Source: Prochlorococcus sp. AG-355-N18
Lineage (GTDB): Bacteria; Cyanobacteriota; Cyanobacteriia; PCC-6307; Cyanobiaceae
Direction of reading: 5' to 3'
NCBI GenBank assembly: GCA_003278535.1
Contig: QCEG01000003.1
Location: 43,974-107,973 of the forward strand
DNA: 64,000 nucleotides
Shown here piece by piece: positions 20,354 through 32,061 of the stretch; positions within the stretch are counted from its first letter, which is position 1; every line of letters begins with the position of its first letter. Position numbers and translations under genes: made by a program. The notes under the pieces are model-generated. The model had not been told where the DNA came from. It saw nothing but the letters and a program-made list of their open reading frames with translations, and ran no database searches.

Positions 20354-20664
20354 AAGATAAATAAAATTGGAAATTTTAGAAAATATTTCCCCCTCTAAAA
20401 AAAAATTTTTCACAACTTTTCCACAGTATATTTTTAAAAAATATCTGATGATCTAAAGCATGTGGAAAACTTCTGATTTTATATAAATCTTTATATTTAA
20501 GTAAGATTAAATTTTACAAAATTAATTTCAATGATCCCTGGCTTTACGACTGGATTCTCATTATTCTATGACCTGAGACTGTTTTTTATTAATGCTTGTT
20601 GACTATTTAATAATTTTAGAGAAAACTACATTTTGTAGATTTAAATTTCAACAAGTTTTTTAAT

Positions 20665-21406: not shown

Positions 21407-21429
21407 AAAGTGTGGACGGGGTGTGGACA
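21407..21429 (+). repeat. Left copy of 23-bp direct repeat (putative att)
   Basis: Identical to 31740-31762. Lies 16 nt beyond the start codon of the EVE gene. Confidence 0.85.
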
Positions 21430-21597
21430 GAACCCCCTTTTTTTGTAGGAATTTGAACCCTATTCCTTTGATCTAATTTACCGTAAATAAATTAAACCTA
21501 AAAGTATATAGTTACAGATCGCTTGAGATACTTTTTATCTGTTCTCATTAATCTGTAGCTATTGAGAAGCCTAGTTATAGCTTGATTCTTGTTGCTT

Positions 21598-21630
21598 CTG
21601 TCCACACCTTTTTGTTAATCTGTCCACACC
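21598..21630 (-). promoter_or_regulatory. Two exact GGTGTGGACAG boxes (minus orientation) spaced 22 bp apart
   Basis: CTGTCCACACC at 21598-21608 and 21620-21630. The same 11-mer is on the plus strand at 21420-21430 inside the left repeat. Confidence 0.6.
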
Positions 21631-21698
21631 ACTAGGAAAGAAGTCAGTATATAACTAGCTTCAATAACGTCCTATACAAACCACGTATCAGAAGCAAA

Positions 21699-21878
21699 CT
21701 AAACTCTCATGCACCTTTCGAGCTGGTTGAGGAGGAGCTGGAGCTGCTTGTCGCTTAACCAGACTTGAATAGATTCATTACCTATCTCTCCTTGTACTTC
21801 ATAGTGTGGGAAGTGGACGAGATGTACTCTTTCCTTCTTCCCATGTTTAGTGTTAATAGTCTTTTCTACTGAAGTCAT
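21699..21878 (-). CDS. Small element-encoded hypothetical protein (59 aa)
   Basis: Internal Met of track ORF 21699..21914 gives an ATGA overlap with the stop of 21875..22195. GC-richer than its surroundings. Confidence 0.5.
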   Translation of the reverse strand: MTSVEKTINTKHGKKERVHLVHFPHYEVQGEIGNESIQVWLSDKQLQLLLNQLERCMRV

Positions 21879-22195
21879 TTGCTCTTCAAGAGGATAGCTC
21901 TTGCTTTGTTCCATCTATGCTCGAAAGACTCCTCTCTACTTGATTCTTCTATCTGATTTCCATACTCATCTACACCGTTGTAGTACACGCCTAGAACGTA
22001 CTCTACAAAGGGTTCAACGGCTTTCCTACTCTTAGATTTAAGAAGCTTTGTGAACGCTTCCATAGACCTCTGAAGCTTGTCACTCTGTAGGTTGTGAATC
22101 CATGAAGAACCTTGGTGATGGTAGATAAGAACCTTCACTACTTCGTCATAAGAAAGCCACGGATGAGCGTCTTTTATTTGTTGTGTTCTGTCCAT
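21875..22195 (-). CDS. Element-encoded hypothetical protein (106 aa)
   Basis: Track ORF with coding-like composition, translationally coupled to the downstream 59-aa ORF. Confidence 0.55.
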   Translation of the reverse strand: MDRTQQIKDAHPWLSYDEVVKVLIYHHQGSSWIHNLQSDKLQRSMEAFTKLLKSKSRKAVEPFVEYVLGVYYNGVDEYGNQIEESSREESFEHRWNKARAILLKSK

Positions 22196-22255
22196 TTGTT
22201 TAAGTTTTTATTGTTTAGTTATTTCTGTGTGATTTCGAGGGGTGGCATGGGGTCA

Positions 22256-22286
22256 ATGTGACCGTGCTACATCGTTATATGTGACC
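22256..22286. promoter_or_regulatory. Direct repeat ATGTGACC x2 (23-bp period) upstream of the 22195 operon
   Basis: ATGTGACC at 22256-22263 and 22279-22286, 60-90 nt upstream of the minus-strand start at 22195. Confidence 0.4.
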
Positions 22287-22307
22287 TGACAAATTTCTGT
22301 TGAAAAT

Positions 22308-22457
22308 TTACGGATACAACCTTTCAATAGCTTCTTTCTGCTCTTGCTTTTTTATCTCTTCAGCGTCTAAAACAGGGCAAGAGTTTTGATTCAGTGATGA
22401 GAGGAAAGTGCCTTTGCTGAATAGCTTGAACAGTGGTGGGAGAAGTAAGCGTTTCAT
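22308..22457 (-). CDS. Possible small ORF (49 aa)
   Basis: Hand-translated as MKRLLLPPLFKLFSKGTFLSSLNQNSCPVLDAEEIKKQEQKEAIERLYP*. No other support. Confidence 0.25.
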   Translation of the reverse strand: MKRLLLPPLFKLFSKGTFLSSLNQNSCPVLDAEEIKKQEQKEAIERLYP

Positions 22458-22476
22458 TTATTTAAGTAAATCAACA

Positions 22477-23472
22477 TTAGCATTTCCTTAGATTTTCTTT
22501 AGCCTCCTTGTTCCCATATTTTTTTGAAATTTTCCAATCCTTACATGCTTTTCTTCCATTTTTTTGATTTGCATTTTGAGCTAACCAGCTATATGCATTT
22601 CCTCTATATAAATGAAGGTTACCAAGGTTTAAAAAAACATCAAAACCCCTTTCGATCTCAAGCTTATTAGTCTCCTCCTGTGATGGAGCTAATTCAATAG
22701 ATTTTGAATAATCAAGAATAGCACTATTTAAAGTTTCTTTAGCAAGTTTTCTTTGATTATTATCTTTATACCAGAAATATAATTCAAATTTTATCCCTCC
22801 TATTTTTGCATAGCTATCGTATTTAACTCCAAATGGGAACAATCTTTTGATCATAAGATCCTTTTCATTACCTTTATTTGAAATGGATTTCTTAAAAAAT
22901 TCAATAGCTTCATTAGCTGATTTTATTGCCAAATTTGTCTTACCTTTATCGATTAAGTCATTTGAAAAATTAAAAAGATATTCTGCATATGCATAGTTTA
23001 TGTGAGGATTATTTGGAGATATTGCTAATGCTTTTTCCAAATCTTTTTTTGCAGCAGGATTATTTGACAAAGCCCAATTCGAAATACTACCTCTTACTGC
23101 ATAAGCAAATGCATATTGATCGTCAATTTCAATTGCTTTATTAAGATCGTTGATAGCATCTTTATGATTTTCTAAATCCCAAGAATAAATTACTGCCCTC
23201 AAAACATAAGATTCCTTAGAGTTTGCATTTTTTTCTAAATACTTATTTATTGCATTTAATGCTCCAGATGAATCCCCAGATTCAAAGAGAACTAAGGCAT
23301 TATCATATCCAGATATGAGAGATAAATTATTTCCCCCCCCAGACATACCTTCAATGCAACCTTTAAAGTCAGGGGCTTTCATACAGATTTCAGCAACTTT
23401 GGGATCTATATTTGCTTTAACAGCAGTAGGTAAAGCGAGAGCAGCTAGTAGCGGGAGTAGGAAGCTTTTCAT
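22477..23472 (-). CDS. Secreted TPR-repeat protein
   Basis: 331 aa. Signal peptide MKSFLLPLLAALALPTAVKA. Repeated A..Y/NLG..Y-type TPR motifs. Confidence 0.7.
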   Translation of the reverse strand: MKSFLLPLLAALALPTAVKANIDPKVAEICMKAPDFKGCIEGMSGGGNNLSLISGYDNALVLFESGDSSGALNAINKYLEKNANSKESYVLRAVIYSWDLENHKDAINDLNKAIEIDDQYAFAYAVRGSISNWALSNNPAAKKDLEKALAISPNNPHINYAYAEYLFNFSNDLIDKGKTNLAIKSANEAIEFFKKSISNKGNEKDLMIKRLFPFGVKYDSYAKIGGIKFELYFWYKDNNQRKLAKETLNSAILDYSKSIELAPSQEETNKLEIERGFDVFLNLGNLHLYRGNAYSWLAQNANQKNGRKACKDWKISKKYGNKEAKENLRKC

Positions 23473-23856
23473 TTATTCCCAAGTTTTCATATCAGTAGTT
23501 CCTTGTGATCTTTGCATCCAAGAATATTTCCAAGTACCATTTACATTTTTAAAAATGCAAGTGTAAGTTGAAAGATCTTTATTTTGATTCCCTTTATAAC
23601 TGAAGATTTCATTTAAAGTAAAAACTGCATAGGCTATTTCACCGTAAATTTCAATCTTGTGGGTTTTGATTAGTTCTGATGATTCTGCGACTAAATCTTT
23701 ACTATCAAACATTCCCACTAATCCCTTTGCAGAGATTGGATTTCCACTTGGTCTTACAGCTAAAAAATCCTCGGTTACGTTTGGTATTAGAAAAGAAGAA
23801 TCTTCACTGGTTGCATAACCATTAATTAAATCTTCTATGGCTTTAGTATTTGACAT
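23473..23856 (-). CDS. SnoaL/NTF2-like (DUF4440-like) small protein
   Basis: 127 aa. Its stop abuts the TPR gene start. A decayed paralog lies at 47668-48052. Confidence 0.55.
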   Translation of the reverse strand: MSNTKAIEDLINGYATSEDSSFLIPNVTEDFLAVRPSGNPISAKGLVGMFDSKDLVAESSELIKTHKIEIYGEIAYAVFTLNEIFSYKGNQNKDLSTYTCIFKNVNGTWKYSWMQRSQGTTDMKTWE

Positions 23857-23973
23857 TAATAATGGAACTAATTAACAGGCATGATAGTTATTAATCCAAG
23901 TAAGAACAATGTTGAATTAATGAGTCTTCATTTTTAGATTATTAGGCATGTAACCAACTGTTACTACGTACGA

Positions 23974-24049
23974 ATGTGGACATAAAATTTATAGTTTACC
24001 TTCACTAAAGGTATCGATGCTGATAATAAATAGTACCTATGTGGACAGG
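23974..24049 (+). promoter_or_regulatory. Two ATGTGGACA boxes in divergent intergenic region
   Basis: aATGTGGACAtAAAATTt (23974-) and tATGTGGACAggtAAAATTa (24039-), same orientation, about 65 bp apart. Confidence 0.5.
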
Positions 24050-24127
24050 TAAAATTAAAAGAAAAAACATCCCTTAAAGCATGTTATTGCAAGCTATTAT
24101 CTATTTAATTGTTTCACTTTAAATGAC

Positions 24128-24466
24128 ATGGCTAAGCACTACTTGATTGCAGTAGAAGATAAAGATGAGAAGCTATTTAGATTGTTTTGTGAGAAGAATT
24201 CTAAATATGCGATGGTAATAGGAAAAGAGACTACAAATGATCGTTTGGGGTTAGATCATTTGGTTTACATACTCAACTCAATTAGTAATCAAGTTGGAAA
24301 ATCTATAGGAATTAAAGAATGGGATAATTTAAGAAAATACTTGAAGAAAAAAGAAAAGCAATATTGTCCAGAGTTAGAAAACTATAGAGAATTTAAGTAT
24401 CAAAGTGATAAACAGTTTGATGATGATTTAGCTTTTCCAATGAATAAGAAAGTTTATCGTAGATGA
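24128..24466 (+). CDS. Hypothetical protein (112 aa)
   Basis: Track ORF with no recognisable domain. Confidence 0.45.
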   Translation: MAKHYLIAVEDKDEKLFRLFCEKNSKYAMVIGKETTNDRLGLDHLVYILNSISNQVGKSIGIKEWDNLRKYLKKKEKQYCPELENYREFKYQSDKQFDDDLAFPMNKKVYRR

Positions 24467-24473
24467 ATGATTA

Positions 24474-24731
24474 CTAATTGGTGAGTAGTTTGGAGTAACT
24501 AACCGGACTATATTTACTACGCTTGTTGTCTGTAACCCTTGTCTCGTATAAATCAGCCATTCCACTTGCTATATCTTGGCACTTAGTTAAGACTGCTGAT
24601 CTTACAAACGTGGATACATCTTCGTATCCTGCCGCACCCATGAGTGAAAGCATCGAATCATAAGCTTTTTCGTCAATTCTTGTTCCGACAATATACGCTC
24701 CGTGGTCTGGTTTCTTGTTGGCTTTAAACAT
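24474..24731 (-). CDS. Ribbon-helix-helix (CopG/Arc-like) DNA-binding protein
   Basis: Using the internal Met (MFKANKK...): beta strand GAYIVGTRIDEKAYDSM followed by helices ...GYEDVSTFVRSAVL fits the RHH pattern. Confidence 0.55.
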   Translation of the reverse strand: MFKANKKPDHGAYIVGTRIDEKAYDSMLSLMGAAGYEDVSTFVRSAVLTKCQDIASGMADLYETRVTDNKRSKYSPVSYSKLLTN

Positions 24732-24793
24732 ATAAGTGAATGAATAGAAAATAAAAAACACTGGTCTTACTCTTCCTTGGAAAATGCCAGTTT

Positions 24794-25450
24794 TTAGATA
24801 CCTACATAACTACGTTTCTCTTGTTGTCTCTTAAGACTCTCCTTCTTCTCCTCTCTCAACCTAATCTCATGAAATATCAACTCTCTAAGCCGTAGTTCGA
24901 GAGGTGATGGTTCATTACTTCTGCCTTCCACTAACTGAAGCTTGACCATAATAAGTAACTCATCCATGGATGGGTCTGCTTTGGTATGTTTCTTCGTGTC
25001 TAACTTCTTGCCTAGTGGATGCACTTTGTTTTTGAGATCATCTAAAGTTTTCTGGGAAACTTGCTCACCAATACTCCACAGAACCACAACATCATTGAAG
25101 TTAGCCTTAGCTAGTTGATATTGTTTAAACGTCCCGTGACTGTCAAACCATTTAAAGAATGTATCAGGCTCAGTACTGTGTAACTCCCTAAAAGCGTTTA
25201 CAGTCCTTAGCTTGCTGATATAACCCTTTGAAATACCTAATTCATCTAGAAATGGTTGAACGTATGTCTTGGCTTCTTTACTAGCAGTCTTCAACCACTC
25301 ACTATAGATAAAAGATATAGCTCCCTTAGATTCGTCATACTGTTGAAGATGAGGTTTAAGTTTTTGATTTAACTGTTTAAGTTCTTGAGTTGTTGGTTGA
25401 GATAGATGGGTTGTTGTCTGGATAAGTTCAATGTTTGTCATAGGTATCAA
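24794..25450 (-). CDS. HTH-containing protein adjacent to iteron array (candidate replication initiator/regulator)
   Basis: 218 aa. HTH-like LGISKGYISKLRTV and a basic coiled C-terminus. The start faces the repeats at 25486-26509. Confidence 0.5.
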   Translation of the reverse strand: MIPMTNIELIQTTTHLSQPTTQELKQLNQKLKPHLQQYDESKGAISFIYSEWLKTASKEAKTYVQPFLDELGISKGYISKLRTVNAFRELHSTEPDTFFKWFDSHGTFKQYQLAKANFNDVVVLWSIGEQVSQKTLDDLKNKVHPLGKKLDTKKHTKADPSMDELLIMVKLQLVEGRSNEPSPLELRLRELIFHEIRLREEKKESLKRQQEKRSYVGI

Positions 25451-25503
25451 TAGTGTTATTAATGTATGTCCGCGTTATTAGTAACTACCTAACCATCCAT
25501 GAA

Positions 25504-25633
25504 AGAGACAGTTAGAGTATTTGTGGATTGGTAGGTTAGAGAAGTTAAAGTTAAGTTAAAGCTAAGTTAGAGACAGTTGGAGTATGTATGGATTGGTAGG
25601 TTAAAGAAGTTAAAGTTAAGTTAAAGCTAAGTG
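25504..25633. repeat. 65-bp tandem repeat x2
   Basis: AGAGACAGTT(A/G)GAGTAT.TGT.GGATTGGTAGGTTA.AGAAGTTAAAGTTAAGTTAAAGCTAAGT. repeated head-to-tail with a few mismatches. An imperfect inverted copy of GGATTGGTAGG lies at 25486-25500. Confidence 0.9.
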
Positions 25634-25837
25634 TTATAAAGATATCCAATCACCCGCTCACTTCGTTCGCTGAGGATATAGATATAACTTGTTGTCTTTA
25701 AGTTAACGAAGTTGGCTCCGCCCCTTACCTTATAAGAACTACCGCCCGCCCCAAACGGTAGTAATAGCAGTTAGTTAAGTCTGCGGGTCATTCAATTTTT
25801 AGTTAGGAGATATTTGTATTGTTTGTCTCCTTGTTTA

Positions 25838-26509
25838 AGGTGGCTACCGCTTCATCCTGTATACATTACGGTATCCCTCTGTTTACGTAACACTTCAGTC
25901 TTTTGGTGTATACGTAACTGAACCCCTTTGTCCTGTATAGGTAACGGTTTAGAGTTTCTCTCTTTTAAGCCCGCCATCGATCTCTGTATTAGTTGGTATC
26001 TGCTCTCCCACTAAAGGGAGGTGCTTGATTCTCTCACTAATAACCCATGCTTGCTCCCTGTATAAGGGTGTGATTGCTCACTCTCTAGTGATTGCAAGGG
26101 ATTAGAGATTCTCTCTGTATAAGTGTCGGGTCGCTCTTCTCCCTTATAACCCGTCATTGCTCACTCGCTAGTTATCGCAATGGGTTTGAGTTTCTCTCTG
26201 TTTAAGCCCGCCATTGCTTTTCTCCCTAATAGGGGGCTATCGGTCACTCGCTAGTGATACCAGTGGATTAGAGATTCTCCCTCTATAAGGGTCGGATCTT
26301 TCCTGTATAAGCCCGCCATGCCTTTTTCCCTATATATGCGCCATCGGTCACTTACTTGTGATTGCAAGGGTTTAGAAGTTCTCTCTGTATAAGTGTGGGA
26401 TCGCTCCTGTATAGGTGCGTGCTTGCTCTATGTATAAGCCCGTGATCGGTCCCCTCTGTATACGTGACTGTTCGGAGTTTCTCCTGTATACGTAACTGTA
26501 CCCCTTTCC
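25838..26509. repeat. GC-rich iteron array: ~22 units of 21-29 bp (core CTGTATAAG-N-CCGCCAT-GCTC) plus 4 copies of a 36-bp submodule
   Basis: Unit starts read by eye at 25857, 25879, 25906, 25933, 25962, 25984, 26008, 26034, 26058, 26115, 26142, 26198, 26225, 26281, 26303, 26329, 26385, 26406, 26430, 26455, 26484. Submodules are at 26078, 26161, 26244, 26348. Confidence 0.9.
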
Positions 26510-26811
26510 TTGAGTAAATTTTTTAGGTATAAGTGGTCTAAGGACTTGTCCCTTCCTGAGGACTTGAGCCTAGCGGTTTCAAGGTTAACCCCGCGCTCCT
26601 ACGCACGAGTACAAAAACCTTTTTTATTAATGAAACTCTCTTCTAGGACACTCAGCTTGCTGCTTAATGTGGCTCTTGTGCTGTGTGTCTTTGTTATTTA
26701 AAAACTTACTTTAATAAATTAAGCAAAGCCAAATAAAAAGTTAAATTTCTGGGGTTTGTTGTAAAAGCATTTTATAAATTAAATCAAAATTTAATATTCG
26801 GAAAAAGATTT

Positions 26812-26985
26812 ATGGAAAATAAAAAAGAGATAAAAGTAGAGCGATTAAATTTTTACTCAAATTATATGACCGTAGCTAAAGATCAGCTAGCGCAAAATCA
26901 CTTAAAGTTGACCTATCAAAGAAACTTAGTTTCTGATCTAGACCAAAAACATAAAACATGGGCTAAAGAAGATGCGGCAAGTTAA
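26812..26985 (+). CDS. Small protein (57 aa), DLDQKHKxW family
   Basis: MENKKEIKVERLNFYSNYMT...VSDLDQKHKTWAKEDAAS*. Paralog at 55993..56154 shares FYS...DLDQKHK.W.K. Confidence 0.5.
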   Translation: MENKKEIKVERLNFYSNYMTVAKDQLAQNHLKLTYQRNLVSDLDQKHKTWAKEDAAS

Positions 26986-27480
26986 TTACTTGTTAAAAGT
27001 GATTATATTTTTAAAAAATATGTTCCTCAGTTTATGAGGACACAAGAGATGAGATTGGTAACGAGGAGTAATTTATAAGTTAAAAGGGTGATTCGAGATC
27101 TAAAACATAAGCTCAACTTATTACCGTGCACTTGCAGATAAACCAACCTTATTAGGTCGTACTTGTGACCTAAAGCCATTCTTTATTAATTAGGGACCAC
27201 TATAGGAGAACAGAAATAACTTGTAGAGAAATCTGAGAAAAAGATCTTATTCCTGTGGATAAATTCTAATGTAACGAAATTAAAGAAAAGTGTAATAATC
27301 TTTAGAACAATTACCATGACTTAATTTATATAATGTAGTACTGTTAACAGTATTATCGGTAAATATGGGATCTATTGTTATGACTAGGTTTTCCACATGC
27401 ATTAATTAATATTTAAGTTAAATTATTTGTAGAGGTTGTTGATACTAACTAAATGAAACATTCTGGGCAGTTTTCATGAA

Positions 27481-28443
27481 GTGCAACCTCTAAATATTCA
27501 ATTATCTAATAAAACAATGGAGAAGGGAAAACAAAAATGCTTAATGTGTGAAGAGACTTTTGTGAAAAAGAATCCTAAACATGTTTGTTGTTCTCCGAGA
27601 TGTAATAGTAAAAAAAAGAATGAAAAGCTAAAACAAGAAAATAAAATAAAACTTCAATCAATCTCAAGAATATGCAAAAGCGAAACTTGTAATAATATTT
27701 TTTCTCCTACTCAAAGAATAGATCAATTATTTTGCTCTACCGAATGCTGTGAAAGACAAGGGAAAAGAGATTATAAAACTAGAAATCCTGAGAAAATAAA
27801 AAAATCAGAGAATAGAAGAAAGAAATTCAAATATCATAATGATCCTATAGATAGGGAGAAAAAGATTAATGCTTCAAATACCAGATACCACAAACTTACA
27901 CCCGAAGAGAAGAAGGAAAAAAGTAAAAATAATAGATTAACCAATCCTCAAAAAACAAGAGATTATGCACGTGAATATCACTCTCGGAGATCCAAAGAAG
28001 ATCCAAATTTTAAACTTGCAAATACTATTAGATCTAGGATTAACTCAGCGATTACAAAGGTTGGAGGTAAAAAGACAGCCAAAACTCTTGAATTACTTGG
28101 ATGCTCCATTGAGCTTTGCAGAAAATATATTGAAGCTCAATTTGAGAAAGGGATGTCTTGGAGCAACTATGGACTTTGGGAGATAGATCACATCAAACCT
28201 GTTTCAACATTTGATGATTTAACAACGAAGAAATCTCAACAACTAATATGCTTCAACTATAAAAATTTGCAACCTCTTTGGAAGCAAGAAAATAATTCAA
28301 AACTTGGTACTTTCCGACCTGAAGATAAAGTAATTTTCTTTGAAAGATTTTATCTTCCAGAAGAACTATATGAAGAAATTCAAGAAAGGAGAAAGCTTAA
28401 CTTAAGTAGAAAATCATTAGCCATCCCAATCAAAAATGTATAA
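27481..28443 (+). CDS. HNH endonuclease with N-terminal Cys-rich zinc-ribbon repeats and basic repeat region
   Basis: 320 aa (GTG start; alternative ATG at 27517). Two CxxC...CCSxxC / C..C...CSTECC units. HNH core EIDHIKP...NLQPLWKQENNSK. Confidence 0.75.
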   Translation: MQPLNIQLSNKTMEKGKQKCLMCEETFVKKNPKHVCCSPRCNSKKKNEKLKQENKIKLQSISRICKSETCNNIFSPTQRIDQLFCSTECCERQGKRDYKTRNPEKIKKSENRRKKFKYHNDPIDREKKINASNTRYHKLTPEEKKEKSKNNRLTNPQKTRDYAREYHSRRSKEDPNFKLANTIRSRINSAITKVGGKKTAKTLELLGCSIELCRKYIEAQFEKGMSWSNYGLWEIDHIKPVSTFDDLTTKKSQQLICFNYKNLQPLWKQENNSKLGTFRPEDKVIFFERFYLPEELYEEIQERRKLNLSRKSLAIPIKNV

Positions 28444-28615
28444 AGAAAAAGAATCAACAAAACTACTTCGAATGGTTCTTTCAATAAGAAATGATTTAGA
28501 TCAAATCGAGCATTCCGAAACATGCAAGTTTCTCGAAGTACGAAGATTAGAGCAATTAGACAAAGCGTTTACCGCAAGCTTATTCCAAACCCTTATAGAT
28601 GAAGTAATCGTATGA
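28436..28615 (+). CDS. Small helical protein (59 aa), overlaps HNH stop by 8 nt
   Basis: MYKEKESTKLLRMVLSIRNDLDQIEHSE...LFQTLIDEVIV*. Roughly one-third identical by eye to the next ORF. ATGA overlap with it. Confidence 0.5.
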   Translation: MYKEKESTKLLRMVLSIRNDLDQIEHSETCKFLEVRRLEQLDKAFTASLFQTLIDEVIV

Positions 28616-28827
28616 AAAGCTTACCAACAGAAAACAGACCATCAACCAAGATCCTTCAAGATTTAATCTCAGTAAGGCAAAAATTAATGGTAATAGAAAG
28701 TTCTAATGAACCATTTATCTCTAAGCTTGATCCGCTACTAGAACGTGATAAGCAATTATCAGAATGTCTGGTTCAATACCTTATATATGAACTAGATTTG
28801 AATTTAAAAGAGGAGGTAAAAGAATGA
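28612..28827 (+). CDS. Small helical protein (71 aa), tandem paralog of 28436..28615
   Basis: Shared pattern L..L.S.R..L..IE.S......L..L...DK....L.Q.LI.E. ATGA overlaps on both sides. Confidence 0.55.
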   Translation: MKSLPTENRPSTKILQDLISVRQKLMVIESSNEPFISKLDPLLERDKQLSECLVQYLIYELDLNLKEEVKE

Positions 28828-29300
28828 AGAAACTTGCTCTTCTTTTTCTCTTCTTATTCGAACCTCTTGCTTACTCAGCTACTGAGAATGAAACAACTAA
28901 ACCTAAATCTCAAATTCTAAATAATCCATTTGAAAGACTAGGAAAAGAAGCAAAATTTAACTGCAAAGAATTTGGAGAGGAAAGTTGTTTCTCAAGATTT
29001 ATTGCGATGTCCGCGTGTGTATTTGCTCAAAGCATCAATAGCGATAAGACAGTTAAAGAGTCTTTAGATATTGCAGATGATTTATTTTATCTACTTGCTT
29101 CAGGTCATGGATTAGATATTAAAAATATTTTTGATGACAAAGATTTGATCAAGCAAGATATCCGAGTTGAAACGATTGCAAGAGTTAATAGATGCAATGA
29201 ATGGGCAAAAGAAGCAATTCCAAAAATTGTTCTCGAGCGAACTGGCAAACCAGCAACACCAGAATTTATTGAAGGTGCAACTAGGACATTTGGTATGTGA
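28824..29300 (+). CDS. Secreted hypothetical protein (158 aa)
   Basis: Signal peptide MKKLALLFLFLFEPLAYSA. Last gene of the four-gene overlapping set. Confidence 0.55.
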   Translation: MKKLALLFLFLFEPLAYSATENETTKPKSQILNNPFERLGKEAKFNCKEFGEESCFSRFIAMSACVFAQSINSDKTVKESLDIADDLFYLLASGHGLDIKNIFDDKDLIKQDIRVETIARVNRCNEWAKEAIPKIVLERTGKPATPEFIEGATRTFGM

Positions 29301-29372
29301 TGGTTGAGCAGTCTTGAGGGTGTGAAACAAAGAGGGAAATGATTACATCATCTCGAAGTAAGCGTTTCAAAA

Positions 29373-29657
29373 TTATTCAGAAATCCAGCGGTTAATTATT
29401 GTCCCTTCATAAATATGACCGGATGCTTCAACTATTGGTTTGGTTTCTGGGTTAATAAAGATGTCATAACAAGTATTTACTGGTCCTTGAAACATAACGG
29501 TTGCTCTTTTGGGGTCTTCTAATGATTTGCCAATATAAAAAGTTTTTACTCCCATCTCTTTAAACATGGCTTGTTGTTCAGGAGCATTCATATGAGACTC
29601 ATATTCTTCAAAAGTATTGCTTAATTTGAAATCTAAAACAGTTGTTTCAATAGTCAT
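29373..29657 (-). CDS. Hypothetical protein (94 aa)
   Basis: Track ORF with coding-like composition. No domain recognised. Confidence 0.45.
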   Translation of the reverse strand: MTIETTVLDFKLSNTFEEYESHMNAPEQQAMFKEMGVKTFYIGKSLEDPKRATVMFQGPVNTCYDIFINPETKPIVEASGHIYEGTIINRWISE

Positions 29658-29711
29658 AAAAAAGAAGGGTGTAATCCCTTCAATATTAATGAACTTTTAA
29701 TTTATATAAGT

Positions 29712-30023
29712 CTAAACTTTATCAAGTTCTAATTTTTTAGCGGTCTCAAGAAATTCTTCATCAGTCATCATTGCTCTTATTTCAACTTTCACTCCAAATC
29801 CCTTAATCCATGGAGCGGTATGTTCCCAAATCTTTTGTGGACTTTCCGCTTCCACAATAAAATTTCCAGTTCCATTTTGTGGATCTAAGACTCTATATTT
29901 AATTTCAAATCCCTCAAACTTGTCACCCTGCTTACCCTCCGATAAATATTGAACAAAAGCTGGAGTACATTTAACGCTAGCTTCCTGATTAGGGAAAGCC
30001 CAAAATACTTGATAAGTAGTCAT
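29712..30023 (-). CDS. DUF3303-like small protein
   Basis: 103 aa. Pattern M..Y.V.W...F...G....G...R..P..GTG..IVEA.S......PW.....V.I...M.DEE matches my memory of DUF3303. Confidence 0.5.
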   Translation of the reverse strand: MTTYQVFWAFPNQEASVKCTPAFVQYLSEGKQGDKFEGFEIKYRVLDPQNGTGNFIVEAESPQKIWEHTAPWIKGFGVKVEIRAMMTDEEFLETAKKLELDKV

Positions 30024-30152
30024 AAATAATTATTACTGATGAAAACAAATTAATATAATTTTCACAAATTACTTTGTTATTTTTTGAAATTCATATCTTT
30101 AAAAAATAAAAATTTACTATTTTAATTTGGCTTGACTATCAATAACATGATT

Positions 30153-31265
30153 TTATTCGTCGAATAATTGAATAGTTTCTGGTCTTTGTCTCTTTTTACC
30201 AAATTCAATATCTGTTAACTCTTTGGTTCTCTTTCTAATGTCTATCCTTTCGTAAGTCTGCATAATCGTAGCTACAGAGTTACCGCAAATACGAGCGAGT
30301 AGATAAGCGTCAGTACCTCTCAAGATATGGTTTTCGATAAAGGTTGATCTCATTGAATAGAGAGTATAAGGACGGTCTGAGAACTTATGACCTTTGAGCT
30401 TTCCAGCAGACATTAAGTAATTACATATCCATCTCCAATGCTGACCGATCTTTCTTTGGTTAGGTTGGTTTAACTCGTTGAATATCTGAGCGAAAACATA
30501 TTCGTCGCCTTTAATAGTGTGGTTAAATTCTTTCTTTAGAATTTCCTTCCAACGCTTGAAAACACTACCTAAGTCACAAGGTATCTCTCTGTACTCCTGA
30601 GTCTTCGCTCTCATTGTTGTTATGTATGCGATAAGTCTTTCTTCTCGACCCCATTCAGTACCTTCTGGAGCCCATTCAGAGGGGTCTTTCAAGTCAGGTG
30701 CTTCTATCTCTAGCTCTACTCCGTCGGCTTGAGCTTCTCCCATTACTTGCTCCCATTCTTCTTGAGCTTTAGTGTTTGATACTCTTCCTACATCAACAAT
30801 TTCTACATTCTTCCATTTGAGTTTGCAGATTTCTTCAGGAGACATACCTGAGTTTTTAGCAACTAAAATCCAATGCCAGAACATATTTCTAAACCATTTA
30901 CTCTTGGCTGTAGTTTTTCTATCAACTATCTTTATATCTTTTCTGAATTGATTAGTTGAAGGTAGCTTAGAGGGTTCATAAGCTTCTTTCCTCCATTTGT
31001 TTCTAACGTGATTGATTATGATTTCCCAGTCTTCAGGATTGATTGCTGGGTTTGCATCTCTGTCGCTCTGTCTGACTTCTATCTTTGGTAAGAATTGACC
31101 ATCCATCCACAAGCGAGCTTCGACATACTTGAACTTAACTAGATAGCTTTTAATAAATTCTCCGAGGACTGAAAGCTCTCTTTGAATAAGGATTCTTTTA
31201 TCTGTATCCTTTAGACGAAAAATACAATAATCATCGAAAGTTGATTCATTGATTTGAGAAGACAT
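30153..31265 (-). CDS. Tyrosine-recombinase-like integrase, catalytic portion (atypical active-site residues)
   Basis: 370 aa. Box I-like WILVAKNSGMSPEEICKLKWKNVEI, box II-like YTLYSMRSTFIENHILRG and LARICGNSVATIMQTYERI (nucleophile Tyr context). Confidence 0.7.
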   Translation of the reverse strand: MSSQINESTFDDYCIFRLKDTDKRILIQRELSVLGEFIKSYLVKFKYVEARLWMDGQFLPKIEVRQSDRDANPAINPEDWEIIINHVRNKWRKEAYEPSKLPSTNQFRKDIKIVDRKTTAKSKWFRNMFWHWILVAKNSGMSPEEICKLKWKNVEIVDVGRVSNTKAQEEWEQVMGEAQADGVELEIEAPDLKDPSEWAPEGTEWGREERLIAYITTMRAKTQEYREIPCDLGSVFKRWKEILKKEFNHTIKGDEYVFAQIFNELNQPNQRKIGQHWRWICNYLMSAGKLKGHKFSDRPYTLYSMRSTFIENHILRGTDAYLLARICGNSVATIMQTYERIDIRKRTKELTDIEFGKKRQRPETIQLFDE

Positions 31266-31282
31266 TGAAACCTTTTTATGTT

Positions 31283-31738
31283 TTAAATAAAACTTGATAT
31301 GTCGGCAGCAATTAAACTTGTGATCGAATGATGTTTTGCAAGAGCTCCAGCATCTACTCTCTTTTGCTCTTGTGTGAACCAGTCTTTAAAAGCTTTTTCA
31401 AGATTGATTTTAGGGTTCTCTTCCTTCTTCTTAGCTTTAAATAATTTCTCTTTAGCTCTCTGAAGCTTCTCCTCTCTAGCCATTAAATCAAGAGGGTCTA
31501 TGTTGCTAGGCGTTGGAGGTTTAGCTGCTAGAGATTGAGCTAGTTCGATAGCTACTTGAGGAGCTAGTTCAATAGCTTCTTGTAAGTTTGTAGCTCCTTC
31601 TATCTTCTTTTCTCTATAACTCTTTTTACCTTTTACCTTCTCTTTGTAATACCAGTTACCAGCTCCATTCCCGTTCGCATATAGAAGAACTCTACCTAAA
31701 CCATTTAATACTGTTTCTTGCTGGGCTATTTGCGGCAT
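31283..31738 (-). CDS. Integrase N-terminal (arm-binding-like) domain encoded as a separate ORF
   Basis: Start taken at Met10 of the track ORF. GRVLLYANGNGAGNWYYKEKVKGKKSYREKKI..ATNLQEA resembles DUF4102-type integrase N-termini. Stops 17 nt before the catalytic ORF. Confidence 0.5.
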   Translation of the reverse strand: MPQIAQQETVLNGLGRVLLYANGNGAGNWYYKEKVKGKKSYREKKIEGATNLQEAIELAPQVAIELAQSLAAKPPTPSNIDPLDLMAREEKLQRAKEKLFKAKKKEENPKINLEKAFKDWFTQEQKRVDAGALAKHHSITSLIAADISSFI

Positions 31739-31739
31739 A

Positions 31740-31762
31740 AAAGTGTGGACGGGGTGTGGACA
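31740..31762 (+). repeat. Right copy of 23-bp direct repeat (putative att)
   Basis: Identical to 21407-21429. Sits immediately upstream of the recombinase locus. Confidence 0.85.
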
Positions 31763-32061
31763 CACTATAGCTCAATTATAAAAACTTAGTCATAGGCTAC
31801 TGGTACATGGTTCATTAACCAGTAGTTAGGTTCTGTCATCGTCTATGATTTGAGGAGAATAGTTCTGCTGGTGTTTGCTGGTATGGCAGTTTGTTAACTT
31901 TTTCGTAAGTCAGCCTAATTCAAACCATTTTATTCAGTTTATCGAAAAATATTAGTCGAAGAAAGTTAGGAAAAATATAGAAATAGATTACTTAATCCGG
32001 ACTTTTTGTTTTTGGAATAATTGACAGTCGATCTAAAATTGGAATGGTAGTTAAGTCTTAA

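Follow-up and report, generated by a model that had tools for sequence, protein, structure and literature searches.

A repeat array, two hairpins and the genes of two orphan proteins make up a conserved module of ~2 kb within an integrated element of Prochlorococcus sp. AG-355-N18. The array lies at positions 25486-26509 of the window, i.e., the whole stretch of 64,000 nucleotides (64 kb) that was analysed. We tentatively read the region as a cis-acting replication-control site (an oriV-like, iteron-type origin or a copy-control site) of an excisable element of ~10.4 kb, possibly one that depends on a helper phage. The array, the hairpins, the gene of a 215-aa helix-turn-helix (HTH) protein and the gene of an 85-aa protein co-occurred in 10 of the 10 related loci with sufficient upstream DNA, and this module is the sole part conserved across the element family.

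Organization and conservation of the repeat array

The array is non-coding and consists almost entirely of direct repeats on one strand. As the preliminary description had proposed, no credible ORF covers it; the overlapping ORFs in the ORF list encode just 41 and 48 aa. A coding repeat was rejected, since the array lacks a covering ORF and the unit lengths are not multiples of three. The GC content is 0.42-0.48 over 25700-26600 and 0.28-0.33 on either side (background ~30%), in agreement with the earlier account of a GC-rich and nearly wholly repetitive region. Gene directions diverge at the array: genes left of it are on the minus strand and those right of it on the plus strand. The features of the module are as follows:

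24474-24731, minus strand: gene of the 85-aa orphan protein, always following the HTH gene
24794-25441, minus strand: gene of the 215-aa orphan HTH protein, a candidate iteron-binding protein or initiator (motif ELGISKGYISKLR and structure model)
25442-25503, minus strand: promoter-proximal conserved segment with an imperfect inverted repeat, TTAATAACACTATTGATA, directly upstream of the ATG
25504-25632, plus strand: 65-bp tandem pair (TRF, 2.0 copies, 93% match)
25642-25679, minus strand: hairpin B, ATATCC...GGATAT with a CGAAG (GAA-loop) apex (RNAalifold, pair counts)
25688-25704, minus strand: conserved box AACTTAAAGACAACAAG (gene orientation) adjoining hairpin B, kept in all close relatives
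25738-25762, unstranded: hairpin A, ACTACCG, an 11-nt G/C-rich loop and CGGTAGT (DNA fold z = -2.8)
25857-25960, plus strand: four gene-proximal canonical iterons, GTTACGTATACAGG... in gene orientation, of the type present in all relatives
25961-26455, plus strand: variant iteron block, an 83/104-bp higher-order repeat (TRF, motif and repeat searches)
26456-26509, plus strand: two distal canonical iterons (motif and repeat searches)
26515-26700, unstranded: conserved non-coding block of ~175-185 bp adjoining the distal end of the array (comparison with locus L015)

The 65-bp tandem pair had been noticed before and was recovered by TRF. Each of its units holds two boxes of the GTTAGAG/GTTGGAG/GTTAAAG type (CTCTAAC consensus in gene orientation), AAGTTAAAG 11-mers and a AATCCACA-like box, and the unit is duplicated in the window and in L007 and single in the remaining relatives. 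TRF also reported an 83-bp unit (2.7 copies, 26073-26298) and a 104-bp unit (2.1 copies, 26198-26413). Four in-register copies of a 36-bp submodule were found by the repeat search at 26073, 26156, 26239 and 26343, with spacings of 83, 83 and 104 bp; they match the four copies previously placed at 26078, 26161, 26244 and 26348. Each higher-order unit of the variant block combines CTGTATAAG-type units with this submodule and its TCACTnnCTAGTGA palindrome, and the expansion of the block is limited to the window, L010 and L017. The CTGTATAAG core had 17 matches on the plus strand within 25857-26525 and none on the minus strand (up to 2 mismatches), and counting unit by unit gave ~21 units of the CTnTAnA type plus the four submodules. 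Exact CTGTATA occurs at 13 sites in the 64-kb window, nine of them within 25857-26490 and all of these on the plus strand; shuffled sequences gave an expectation of 6.2 over the whole window and both strands, and 13 was reached in 0 of 100 shuffles. The CTGTATACGTAAC variant was indeed confined to the flanks of the array (25857-25945 and 26456-26500). The units are not spaced by roughly two helical turns, as had been suggested, since 26-27 bp corresponds to ~2.5 turns.

The repeat organization is conserved in homologous elements, a check that the preliminary description had called for. The shared order is iteron array, hairpin A, hairpin B, short proximal boxes, 215-aa gene and 85-aa gene. The arrays of the relatives contain ~2-12 units of 26-27 bp, always in a single orientation, and the window reaches ~21 because the 83/104-bp higher-order block interrupts its canonical array. 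Across the family, the iterons follow the consensus GTTAC-N-TATACAGGGGA and most often recur every 26-27 bp, and the TATACAGG core is retained even where the HTH proteins are only 34-37% identical. The unit number, on the other hand, varies from ~2 to ~21 among elements with ~90% identical HTH proteins, and the palindromic 36-bp submodule is missing from most relatives. Many metagenome contigs terminate in or near the array, as expected of a variable tandem array. The columns of segment 25442-25503 are near-invariant in the alignment of the relatives, the distant L001 and L011 included. In the block at 26515-26700, the central ~170 nt are near-identical to L015 and the flanks differ; a 63-aa ORF across it is disrupted in L015, and its fold z values are just -0.8 and -1.2. 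In L002 the module lies near the integrase with one 271-aa ORF between them; this ORF was rejected as coding for the array, as it sits upstream of the L002 array.

The host element and its putative DNA-binding proteins

The array lies inside an integrated element of 10.36 kb, bounded at both ends by perfect 23-bp direct repeats that begin at 21407 and 31740 (2 matches in the window versus 0.00 expected). Its boundaries and integrase region comprise:

21407-21429, unstranded: left attachment-site repeat (attL core), AAAGTGTGGACGGGGTGTGGACA, a perfect copy of 31740-31762 with non-homologous flanks
30153-31265, minus strand: tyrosine-recombinase (integrase) catalytic ORF of 370 aa, pointing into the element (PHROG phrog_1 integrase, E=2.6e-8)
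31283-31738, minus strand: ORF directly upstream of the integrase ORF (ORF list)
31740-31762, unstranded: right attachment-site repeat (attR core), a perfect copy of 21407-21429

The predicted attP junction would read ...TATTTGCGGCATA-AAAGTGTGGACGGGGTGTGGACA-GAACCCCCTTTTTTTG... The att core is an intergenic sequence adjoining an EVE-domain gene; no tRNA or tmRNA was detected in the 64-kb window, and the att sequence had no match in IMG/VR. For the 370-aa ORF, the Pfam Phage_integrase match (E=4e-4) fails the curated cut-off; its C-terminus matches an ORF fragment at the start of L002. Family searches with the ORF at 31283-31738 gave no match; judged by its position, an 18-nt gap on the shared strand, the integrase gene may be split here, with this ORF as its N-terminal portion. 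The cargo includes DUF3804, TPR, DUF3764 and DUF3303 proteins. No Rep-family protein, primase, helicase or polymerase is encoded in the element according to Pfam, PHROGs and NCBIfam, and terS, capsid and interference genes were not detected in the element in the window or in L001, L002, L006, L007 and L011. A role of the array as integrase arm sites was rejected, with 4-5 kb separating it from either att repeat.

The preliminary description had labelled the two genes beside the array as HTH and ribbon-helix-helix (RHH) genes. The first label is plausible, on the grounds of the ELGISKGYISKLR motif and the structure model; no tool supported the second. The 215-aa protein had no family match in Pfam, PHROGs or NCBIfam, and no significant one in the PDB sequence search except apolipoprotein A-I, which was set aside as compositional because it covers the N-terminal amphipathic helices. 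Membership in the Rep, ParB or terS families thus found no support by sequence in these four databases. The AF2 model, built on 24 sequences, is all-helical (pLDDT 78.8). Its best meaningful Foldseek matches, neither of them significant, were DNA-binding domains of KorB (1r71_B, TMt 0.57, E=2) and ParB (6s6h_B, TMt 0.42, E of 2 or more). One of the 24 family members, a distant one, had a Pfam SoPB_HTH match that fell short of the cut-off (E=0.0047). As modelled, the protein bears a weak resemblance to KorB/ParB DNA-binding domains and not to winged-helix Rep proteins. Residues I70, S71, Y74, S76 and K77 of the HTH are invariant or near-invariant family-wide, in step with the invariant iteron core.

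The 85-aa gene directly follows the HTH gene in at least 20 loci, and between the window and L001 its product is 91.6% identical, versus 49% for the HTH protein. The earlier suggestion of an RHH copy-control repressor was not upheld: Pfam, with E values of up to 1 allowed, gave no match for the 85-aa protein, nor did NCBIfam or the PDB profile search, and hhalign against Arc/CopG/Mnt/omega, a weak test with four RHH sequences, gave a probability of 0.5%. The 215-aa protein had no relative in IMG/VR, protein searches of PLSDB and INPHARED gave no match, and neither did DNA searches of plasmids.

Conserved hairpins and a cyanophage counterpart

Two conserved hairpins, which the preliminary description did not mention, lie between the array and the HTH gene. 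Hairpin A carries two compensatory changes in L011 (ACTAGCA/TGCTAGT) and is missing in L001. Hairpin B shows two compensatory pairs and one paired G/C insertion (RNAalifold, pair counts), and its core is bordered by different stems in L018, L020 and L021. Calculated with nearest-neighbour parameters for DNA, its stability is unremarkable (z = -0.7 to -2.4). The apex falls in the GAA mini-hairpin class CGAAG/GCGAAGC, which has been reported at the G4 complementary-strand origin and in ssiA of the RSF1010 oriV (PMC13037366).

Phage S-SRP01 and 24 IMG/VR contigs contain an identical copy of the 28-nt core of hairpin B, with a compensatory change in the outer stem, and the adjoining box is partly common to the phage region (TTGTGTCTTTAGTTG). 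The S-SRP01-like phages carrying the core are T7-type (MPP-B) cyanopodoviruses, and this common possession raises the reading of the element as a satellite of a helper phage. In the phages the hairpin lies in a non-coding gap, with the gene of the terminase large subunit on one side and the first early genes on the other. At least 5 of the 24 viral contigs have the motif no more than ~530 bp from one of their ends. T7-like phage genomes generally have their termini in the gap between terminase and early genes. P-SSP7 has 206-bp terminal repeats (PMC8557907). The position of the hairpin in the phages is as compatible with packaging or transcription signals as with an origin. The phages with the exact core belong to a group isolated from fresh water, and the L002-type variant of the core had no IMG/VR match. 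The TATACAG iterons are absent from the phages carrying the core, and iteron arrays were not found in IMG/VR, where matches to a three-core pattern proved to be collagen-like GYTG coding repeats of unrelated viruses.

Possible replication control and competing explanations

The preliminary description saw in this region the classical layout of an iteron-type origin. That layout could not be recognized: the adjacent protein belongs to no Rep family, the DnaA box is unconserved and no clearly AT-rich unwinding element was identified. What does stand, judged from sequence, is a probable protein-binding type of conserved non-coding repeat array coupled to the gene of an adjacent putative DNA-binding protein. 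It had also been pointed out that an origin would be expected within a chromosome only if the element replicates after excision. The setting would permit this: the element is excisable, as its att repeats and integrase indicate, and an origin would not be misplaced in it. For SGI1 and PICIs, iteron origins within integrative elements have been demonstrated (PMC7433901, PMC6092414). Iteron origins have at least three direct repeats in the same orientation, and these are present here, with units of 26-27 bp versus the typical ~17-22 bp; a recognized Rep-family initiator of the winged-helix type (Rep_3/RepA/TrfA/pi) was not found beside them. The AAGTTAAAG 11-mers at 25542-25632 have a GC content of 0.34, not below the background of 0.28-0.31, and the very AT-rich stretch 26700-27480 is not conserved in relatives. 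Exact DnaA boxes (TTWTCCACA) occur at four sites in the 64 kb, two of them right of the array:

27254-27262, minus strand: DnaA-box match TTATCCACA, exact and window-specific, in AT-rich non-coding DNA
27389-27397, plus strand: DnaA-box match TTTTCCACA, exact and window-specific

None of the DnaA boxes near the array is conserved in the related loci; being window-specific, they were rejected as a conserved origin feature.

From these features we infer the following scheme for protein-site pairings, replication, the hairpins and the array expansion. The integrase would excise the element at the 23-bp att repeats, and the 215-aa HTH protein would bind the same-orientation 26-27-bp iterons cooperatively, with the 85-aa protein assisting it or taking its place. 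The resulting nucleoprotein complex would form beside the two hairpins, and these, above all hairpin B with its GAA mini-hairpin apex, could extrude or turn single-stranded to provide a priming or entry site. Since the element has no helicase, primase or polymerase, DNA synthesis would have to be carried out by enzymes of the host or of a helper phage. No Walker-A NTPase motif was found in the six frames of 21407-31762, which fits an initiator-only replicon that recruits such enzymes. The additional variant iterons of the window may act as a titration or handcuffing cluster in copy control, and the CTCTAAC boxes with the inverted repeat at the ATG may form an autoregulatory operator. However, several points speak against an origin. 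The KorB/ParB DNA-binding domains, which the model weakly resembles at a fold E of about 2, bind centromeres or operators and are not initiators; the 26-27-bp spacing is atypical of plasmid iterons and the unit number varies widely; no DnaA box is conserved, the 11-mer segment is not AT-rich and hairpin B is not unusually stable.

In one alternative, the element would be a satellite of T7-like (MPP-B) cyanopodoviruses and the site would serve packaging or hijacking. Hairpin B and its box would mimic a phage terminal signal for terminase or concatemer processing, and the element proteins on the iterons would redirect or mark the DNA. The identical core with its outer-stem change, its position in the gap where T7-like termini lie by analogy, and the nearby contig ends are consistent with this, as is the helper cos site carried by P4 and cos-PICIs. 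Moreover, tycheposons have been reported from DNA of the viral fraction and of vesicles (Hackl et al., bioRxiv 10.1101/2020.12.28.424599). On the other hand, neither the element nor its relatives carry terS, capsid or interference genes, IMG/VR holds no relative of the HTH protein, no att sequence and no arrays, the phages lack the iterons, the termini of S-SRP01 are themselves placed by analogy with T7-like phages, and the exact-core phages are freshwater isolates while the L002-type core is unmatched in IMG/VR. We consider packaging unlikely. A similarly low probability is given to an operator array, on which the HTH and 85-aa proteins would act as a KorB-/omega-like repressor pair that silences divergent promoters until induction, with no part in replication or segregation. 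The location between divergent gene sets and upstream of the genes of the candidate binders suits such a function, as do the short CTCTAAC boxes, the promoter's inverted repeat and the modelled resemblance to KorB, a multi-operator global repressor. However, the iterons lie 300-1060 bp from the ATG, past 190 bp of conserved hairpin DNA, their five to twenty-one copies go far beyond the need of repression, and the compensatory hairpins and the core common to phages are left unexplained.

The possible KorB and ParB fold matches, together with the SoPB_HTH match of one distant family member, could also point to a centromere-like or stability site, i.e., a sopC- or parC-like cluster by which a ParB/KorB-like HTH protein segregates or tethers the excised circle. 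The tandem array and the palindrome of the 36-bp submodule recall the sopC repeats of F, which are 43 bp long. This explanation is distinctly improbable: the fold evidence is insignificant (E about 2), the canonical iterons are non-palindromic, most relatives do without the palindromic submodule, and a partner NTPase (ParA/SopA/IncC, ParM or TubZ) was found neither in the element, by the Walker-A search, nor in the neighbouring genes of relatives. The lowest probability goes to a function as RNA, either a non-coding RNA with structure or a long, structured leader of an mRNA; such a transcript might, for instance, control the HTH gene in antisense or as a leader. The GC-rich island within AT-rich surroundings of the genome, the compensatory changes in both hairpins and array fold z values of -2.4 and -2.8 would suit an RNA. 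Yet Rfam, even with E values of up to 1 allowed, gave only a snoRNA match put down to chance, so that a known RNA family was rejected; the array is made of direct and not inverted repeats, its unit number is highly variable among close relatives, and fold z is about equal on both strands, which indicates symmetry at the DNA level. An RNA restricted to the hairpins could hold.

Under the replication-control reading, the closest parallels are elements excised by a tyrosine integrase that carry iterons beside the gene of a DNA-binding protein, i.e., SGI1, PICIs and SaPIs. The SGI1 oriV combines four iterons of 17 bp with a DnaA box and AT-rich regions, beside a recognizable Rep with a RepA_C domain, and the PICI ori has two iteron sets around an AT-rich region 3' of pri-rep (PMC7433901, PMC6092414). 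By this parallel, replication would be expected only after excision or helper induction (PMC7433901, PMC6092414). Unlike these systems, the element has 2 to 21 units of 26-27 bp located 5' of the gene of an orphan all-helical HTH protein, no Rep/primase homologue and no conserved DnaA box, and two conserved hairpins lie in the site. With PICIs it shares an integrase and a specific att site; in place of pri-rep and a two-set ori there is a single array 5' of the gene, and the packaging and interference genes of PICIs were not found. The oriV of RSF1010 (IncQ) is likewise composed of direct iterons, a G+C-rich segment and single-strand-initiation hairpins, with a CCGAAGG GAA mini-hairpin in ssiA (PMC13037366). 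This likeness is one of architecture only, with no homology found in sequence; RSF1010 has a RepC initiator, a RepA helicase and a RepB' primase of its own, all of them missing here. The F sopC and RK2 OB sites resemble the region in having a tandem array, here with a palindrome in the expanded block, and in the best, insignificant folds of the HTH protein, which are DNA-bound KorB/ParB domains; unlike them, the element has no ParA/SopA/IncC-type NTPase and no ParB N-terminal CTPase domain, and its canonical units are asymmetric. As in P4 cos and cos-type PICIs, a short non-coding motif is identical in the element and a phage lineage while the surroundings differ, but genes for capsid-size redirection and terS are lacking and the helper is putative.

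Tycheposons occur in the same host genus as the element; both have a tyrosine integrase that faces inward from one end, and both carry cargo of unknown or niche function. The small module, close to the integrase in L002, lies in the slot of the "small replication module" of Hackl et al. However, the element uses a 23-bp non-tRNA site by an EVE-domain gene instead of one of the seven tRNA/tmRNA sites, and the hallmark genes for primase, helicase and polymerase are missing from it. It fits the "cryptic" class of these authors, who reported that about half of the integrase elements have no recognizable hallmark genes and did not mention iterons (Hackl et al., bioRxiv 10.1101/2020.12.28.424599). 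The module is a concrete candidate for the maintenance or replication of such cryptic elements. It is conceivable, though rather doubtful, that the elements of this family are phage satellites or conditional replicons of a new kind, in which an orphan HTH initiator and its 85-aa partner act on the iterons and a cyanopodovirus-derived hairpin lets the machinery of an infecting phage fire the origin or package the element.

Prochlorococcus is very hard to manipulate genetically, and to our knowledge it has no known plasmids. The ~2-kb module of array, hairpins and two genes might serve as a native replicon and as the basis of a vector. Should the reading as a new kind of phage satellite or conditional replicon be true, neither a native replicon module nor a defined satellite-helper cis signal would have been described in Prochlorococcus before. 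The 215-aa and 85-aa putative DNA-binding proteins represent two new orphan families with clear candidate target sites. Finally, the hairpin core common to phages is a specific link between island elements and lytic cyanophages, and it bears on the transfer of flexible genes among cells without conjugation, natural transformation or prophages.

The repeat array and its conservation

The nested tandem repeats reported at about 25486-26509 in the preliminary description are real, as TRF, a repeat search and motif counts agreed. TRF delimited a 65-bp unit in 2.0 copies (25504-25632, 93% match), an 83-bp unit in 2.7 copies (26073-26298) and a 104-bp unit in 2.1 copies (26198-26413). The repeat search aligned four higher-order copies at 26073, 26156, 26239 and 26343, in register and with the spacings of 83, 83 and 104 bp noted earlier, and detected no pairs of inverted repeats between 25400 and 26700. 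Counted singly, the repeats of the array amount to about 21 CTnTAnA-type units of 19-29 bp and four 36-bp submodules, each with a TCACTnnCTAGTGA palindrome. With at most two mismatches, CTGTATAAG was matched 17 times on the + strand (25857-26525) and 0 times on the - strand. The 64-kb window has 13 exact CTGTATA sites, nine of them in 25857-26490; shuffles gave an expectation of 6.2 per whole window and 0/100 reached 13. As had also been claimed, the array is more GC-rich than its surroundings (0.42-0.48 vs. 0.28-0.33 on either side), its CTGTATACGTAAC variant is restricted to both flanks and no credible ORF covers it, the overlapping ORFs being of 41 and 48 aa only. About 2 kb (25442-27480) are without a convincing gene.

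Loci of related elements were recovered for members of the HTH protein family from 93% down to 18% identity, and the repeat organization was found to be conserved, the array being kept wherever a locus had sufficient DNA upstream of the gene. It lies at about -300 to -600 from the HTH gene in L001, L002, L007, L009, L010 and L011/L013, and likewise in L015, L017, L018, L020 and L021. These arrays comprise about 2-12 units in single orientation with the core TATACAGG(G/A)GA; the family consensus is GTTAC-N-TATACAGGGGA, with a modal period of 26-27 bp, and the core is kept where the HTH protein is only 34-37% identical (L018, L020). No TATACAG units occur in L019 and L022, the two most distant members examined, which carry T-arm-like fragments upstream of the HTH gene instead. 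T-arm-like hairpins (GGTTCGATTCC-type) were seen in L019 (690-880), L020 (380-430) and L022 (400-440), with no complete tRNA; they may be partial-tRNA att sites of tRNA-targeting elements or tRNA-like structures.

The flanking CTGTATACGTAAC units of the window are the canonical family iteron (four proximal and two distal), and the central ~500 bp form a variant block of CTGTATAAG-type units in 83/104-bp higher-order repeats, common only to the window, L010 and, partly, L017. Since this block interrupts and splits the canonical array, the window array is an expanded one. Iteron number varies several-fold among elements with about 90% identical HTH proteins, and many metagenome contigs terminate in or near the array. 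IMG/VR matches to three phased TATACAGR cores (for example L103, L189 and L197) were rejected as collagen-like Gly-Tyr-Thr-Gly coding repeats; such false matches came from giant-virus and phage contigs and call for caution in iteron searches.

The integrated element and its two orphan proteins

The window is part of a high-light-type Prochlorococcus chromosome, with Yfr20, a glutamine-II riboswitch, a GC content of about 31% and no tRNA genes in its 64 kb. A perfect 23-bp direct repeat, AAAGTGTGGACGGGGTGTGGACA, at 21407-21429 and 31740-31762, with non-homologous flanks and 0.00 chance matches expected, encloses an element of 10.36 kb and 35% GC. An EVE-domain gene adjoins its left end, and an inward-facing tyrosine-recombinase ORF (30153-31265, -) stands at its right end. 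The remainder of the element is cargo-like, as follows.

DUF3804 gene, cargo-like
Secreted TPR protein gene, cargo-like
DUF3764 gene, cargo-like
DUF3303 gene, cargo-like
Several small unknown ORFs, cargo-like
27481-28443, + strand, HNH-like ORF, 320 aa, Cys-rich, C-terminal WEIDHIKP...NLQPLW, weak PHROG match phrog_28061

Judged from its sequence, the 320-aa ORF likely encodes a passenger endonuclease of the homing type; a GIY-YIG endonuclease occupies the equivalent position in L007. The integrase region reads as two - strand ORFs, 30153-31265 (370 aa) and 31283-31765 (160 aa), about 18 nt apart, and the GTG start listed for the upstream 160-aa ORF falls within the att repeat; a split or a frameshift in the integrase is possible and would leave the window copy of the element immobile. 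A 31-nt direct repeat (84% identity; 22432-22462 and 23447-23477) lies over the 5' ends of two adjacent - strand ORFs, one of them the secreted TPR protein, and is probably due to similarity of their start or signal-peptide regions. L007 (1117-1425, -) and L001 (5282-5566, +) encode a small Cys-rich protein (CxxC...CP.H...QGDHLIKGC) with 51% identity; it had no family match, and its place within the element differs between the two.

Two exact DnaA boxes, 135 bp apart and in opposite orientation (27254-27262, -; 27389-27397, +), sit in the AT-rich, gene-poor part of the element (26700-27480) and were not found in related elements. The other two exact boxes of the window, an inverted pair (TTTTCCACA) 44 bp apart (20417-20425, +; 20461-20469, -), are chromosomal, outside the element and intergenic between the DUF1818 and DUF2811 genes. 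This pair also occurs in a second Prochlorococcus genome (L001 6820-6828, +; 6864-6872, -) and may be a DnaA-regulated promoter or titration site.

A Walker-A motif is absent from every frame of the element, and no primase, helicase, polymerase, ParA, terS or capsid genes were found in it or its relatives. The element follows the general plan of the Prochlorococcus integrase elements of Hackl et al., but occupies a non-tRNA site and lacks hallmark replication genes. It corresponds to the "cryptic" or "non-tRNA-associated" class of these authors, whose preprint does not mention iterons (bioRxiv 10.1101/2020.12.28.424599).

The HTH protein (24794-25441, -; 215 aa counted from ATG) belongs to a very small family, with 19 proteins among 5.8 billion searched and 28 representatives among 1.84 billion in a profile search, and no relatives in IMG/VR, PLSDB or INPHARED. 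It had no match in Pfam, PHROGs, NCBIfam or a PDB sequence search. A 24-sequence alignment gave a usable all-helical AlphaFold model (pLDDT 78.8), for which Foldseek returned no significant match; its only meaningful leads, neither of them significant, were two DNA-binding domains, that of KorB on operator DNA (1r71_B, TMt 0.57, E=2) and that of ParB on parS (6s6h_B, TMt 0.42). One distant family member matched Pfam SoPB_HTH at a sub-threshold E=0.0047. The most conserved part of the family is the HTH segment ELGISKGYISKLR, whose conservation runs parallel to the invariant iteron core. One family member, P0019 (189 aa), combines the N-terminal half of this protein with a fragment matching Pfam AAA_28 and has probably arisen by recombination or decay.

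The 85-aa protein gene (24474-24731, -) is always immediately downstream of the HTH gene. Between the window and L001 its product is 91.6% identical, against 49% for the HTH protein, and it forms an orphan family of 36 members, all from marine data. Its earlier identification as an RHH protein found no support: Pfam gave nothing up to E=1, a PDB profile search was empty, and hhalign gave a probability of 0.5% against four classical RHH sequences. The window lacks other genes (226-232 aa, 124 aa, 271 aa) that some relatives carry. Since these other genes are not shared, the universal module consists of array, hairpins and both genes.

Hairpins and the link to cyanopodoviruses

In A3, the alignment of the array-gene segment, about 190 bp of conserved DNA separate the array from the HTH gene. 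Two hairpins lie between them.

25738-25762, hairpin A, ACTACCG / CGGTAGT, DNA fold z-score -2.8
25642-25679, hairpin B, ATATCC...GGATAT, with an inner imperfect stem and GAA apex

Hairpin A shows two compensatory changes in L011 (ACTAGCA / TGCTAGT) and is absent from L001. Hairpin B shows two compensatory pairs in L010 and L017 and a paired G...C insertion in 4/9 sequences, and its purine-rich core GAGCGAAGCGA(AC) recurs in more distant elements between different complementary arms (GATGGTC/GACCATC in L020, ATAC/GTAT in L018, ATAG/CTAT in L021). Hairpin pairing holds in 91.9% of the cells of A3 and in 18-47% after displacement of the 3' partner by 1-3 columns; at four pairs both sides are altered, and none of the shuffles scored as high in covariation as the observed alignment. 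The covariation evidence is moderate because the changes stem from just two or three lineages. By standard nearest-neighbour energies hairpin B is unexceptional (z = -0.7 to -2.4). Its apex falls in the d(C-GAA-G)/GCGAAGC "mini-hairpin" class, which a 2026 review places at the G4 complementary-strand origin, RSF1010 ssiA within oriV and N4 early promoters (PMC13037366).

Nearer the HTH gene, CTCTAAC boxes and AACTTAACTTT 11-mers make up the 65-bp unit, of which the window and L007 have two copies and the other elements one. The imperfect inverted repeat TTAATAACACTATTGATA abuts the ATG and is retained in L001 and L011 too. A block of about 175-185 bp (26515-26700) borders the array distally; its central ~170 nt are nearly identical to L015 (~392-565), and the flanks differ. 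A conserved ORF was ruled out here, as the 63-aa ORF of the window is interrupted in L015, and folding gave no notable structure; the block may serve as a small RNA, a terminator or a further binding region.

When 25442-26700 was compared with 50,697 phage genomes by blastn, a single match was obtained, in Synechococcus phage S-SRP01, a T7-like member of Autographiviridae assigned by its authors to the marine MPP-B4 cyanopodovirus cluster. The match spans hairpin B and the neighbouring box (window 25642-25700; MW015080.1 2621-2675). The 28-nt core ATTCACCCGCTCACTTCGTTCGCTGAGG is identical in both, and the outer stem bears a compensatory change (ATATCC/GGATAT in the window, ATGTCC/GGACAT in the phage), with a second ATGTCC...GGACAT hairpin also beside the core in the phage. 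The exact 25-nt pattern occurs in 24 viral contigs of IMG/VR, all S-SRP01-like and with identical flanking context, where a rough estimate puts the expected chance matches far below one. In the phage, the hairpin occupies an unannotated gap with the terminase large-subunit gene on one side and thymidylate synthase with small early genes on the other. In T7-like genomes generally, termini with terminal repeats, early promoters and a secondary origin are located in this region. The motif is at most about 530 bp from the contig end in at least five viral contigs, and the CGAAG strand is directed toward the downstream genes in phage and element alike. The phage gap holds short repeats of its own, TGAATGG and AATTGTGTC, and no TATACAG iterons occur in phages carrying the core. 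Since genomes that are otherwise unrelated have kept the core identical, a conserved machine, of phage or host, probably recognizes the shared hairpin. On the same sequence comparison, a satellite-helper relationship between the element and the phage is a serious possibility.

Possible function of the array region

An iteron-type origin or copy-control region, as in the preliminary description, joins the facts best and is tentatively preferred here. Element-coded DNA-binding proteins would occupy the conserved, oriented, multi-copy array, next to which stand conserved hairpins of a class known from priming sites; an element without any replication enzyme needs a recruiting site. The divergence of the genes from the array in an excisable element, and the coupling of a conserved oriented array to its own DNA-binding protein genes, argue for an origin. 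Against it, the 215-aa protein is in no initiator family and faintly resembles proteins that bind centromeres or operators, related elements share no conserved DnaA box and the unwinding element is doubtful.

Because of hairpin B, the main rival is a packaging or hijack site for a T7-like helper phage, which appears unlikely as the element has no packaging gene and IMG/VR no trace of the elements. It is also doubtful that the array is purely an operator, which would leave the hairpins, the distance from the promoter and the copy number unexplained. A centromere is quite improbable, as no ParA or other Walker-A NTPase was found in the element, and a structured RNA, which accords badly with direct repeats and a variable number of units, is very improbable indeed. 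The readings are compatible; origin and packaging would be combined if a helper both activated the origin and packaged it.

Iteron origins have been proven in SGI1 and PICIs (PMC7433901, PMC6092414), and those in integrative elements are an already known kind. The present case differs in its unit size, its composite hairpin architecture, two orphan proteins instead of a known Rep, an array expanded via a higher-order repeat and a hairpin core common to lytic cyanopodoviruses. No plasmids are known from Prochlorococcus. The module, although of unproven function, is a concrete, clonable candidate replicon for Prochlorococcus, and the hairpin B core is a specific cis link between island elements and phages.
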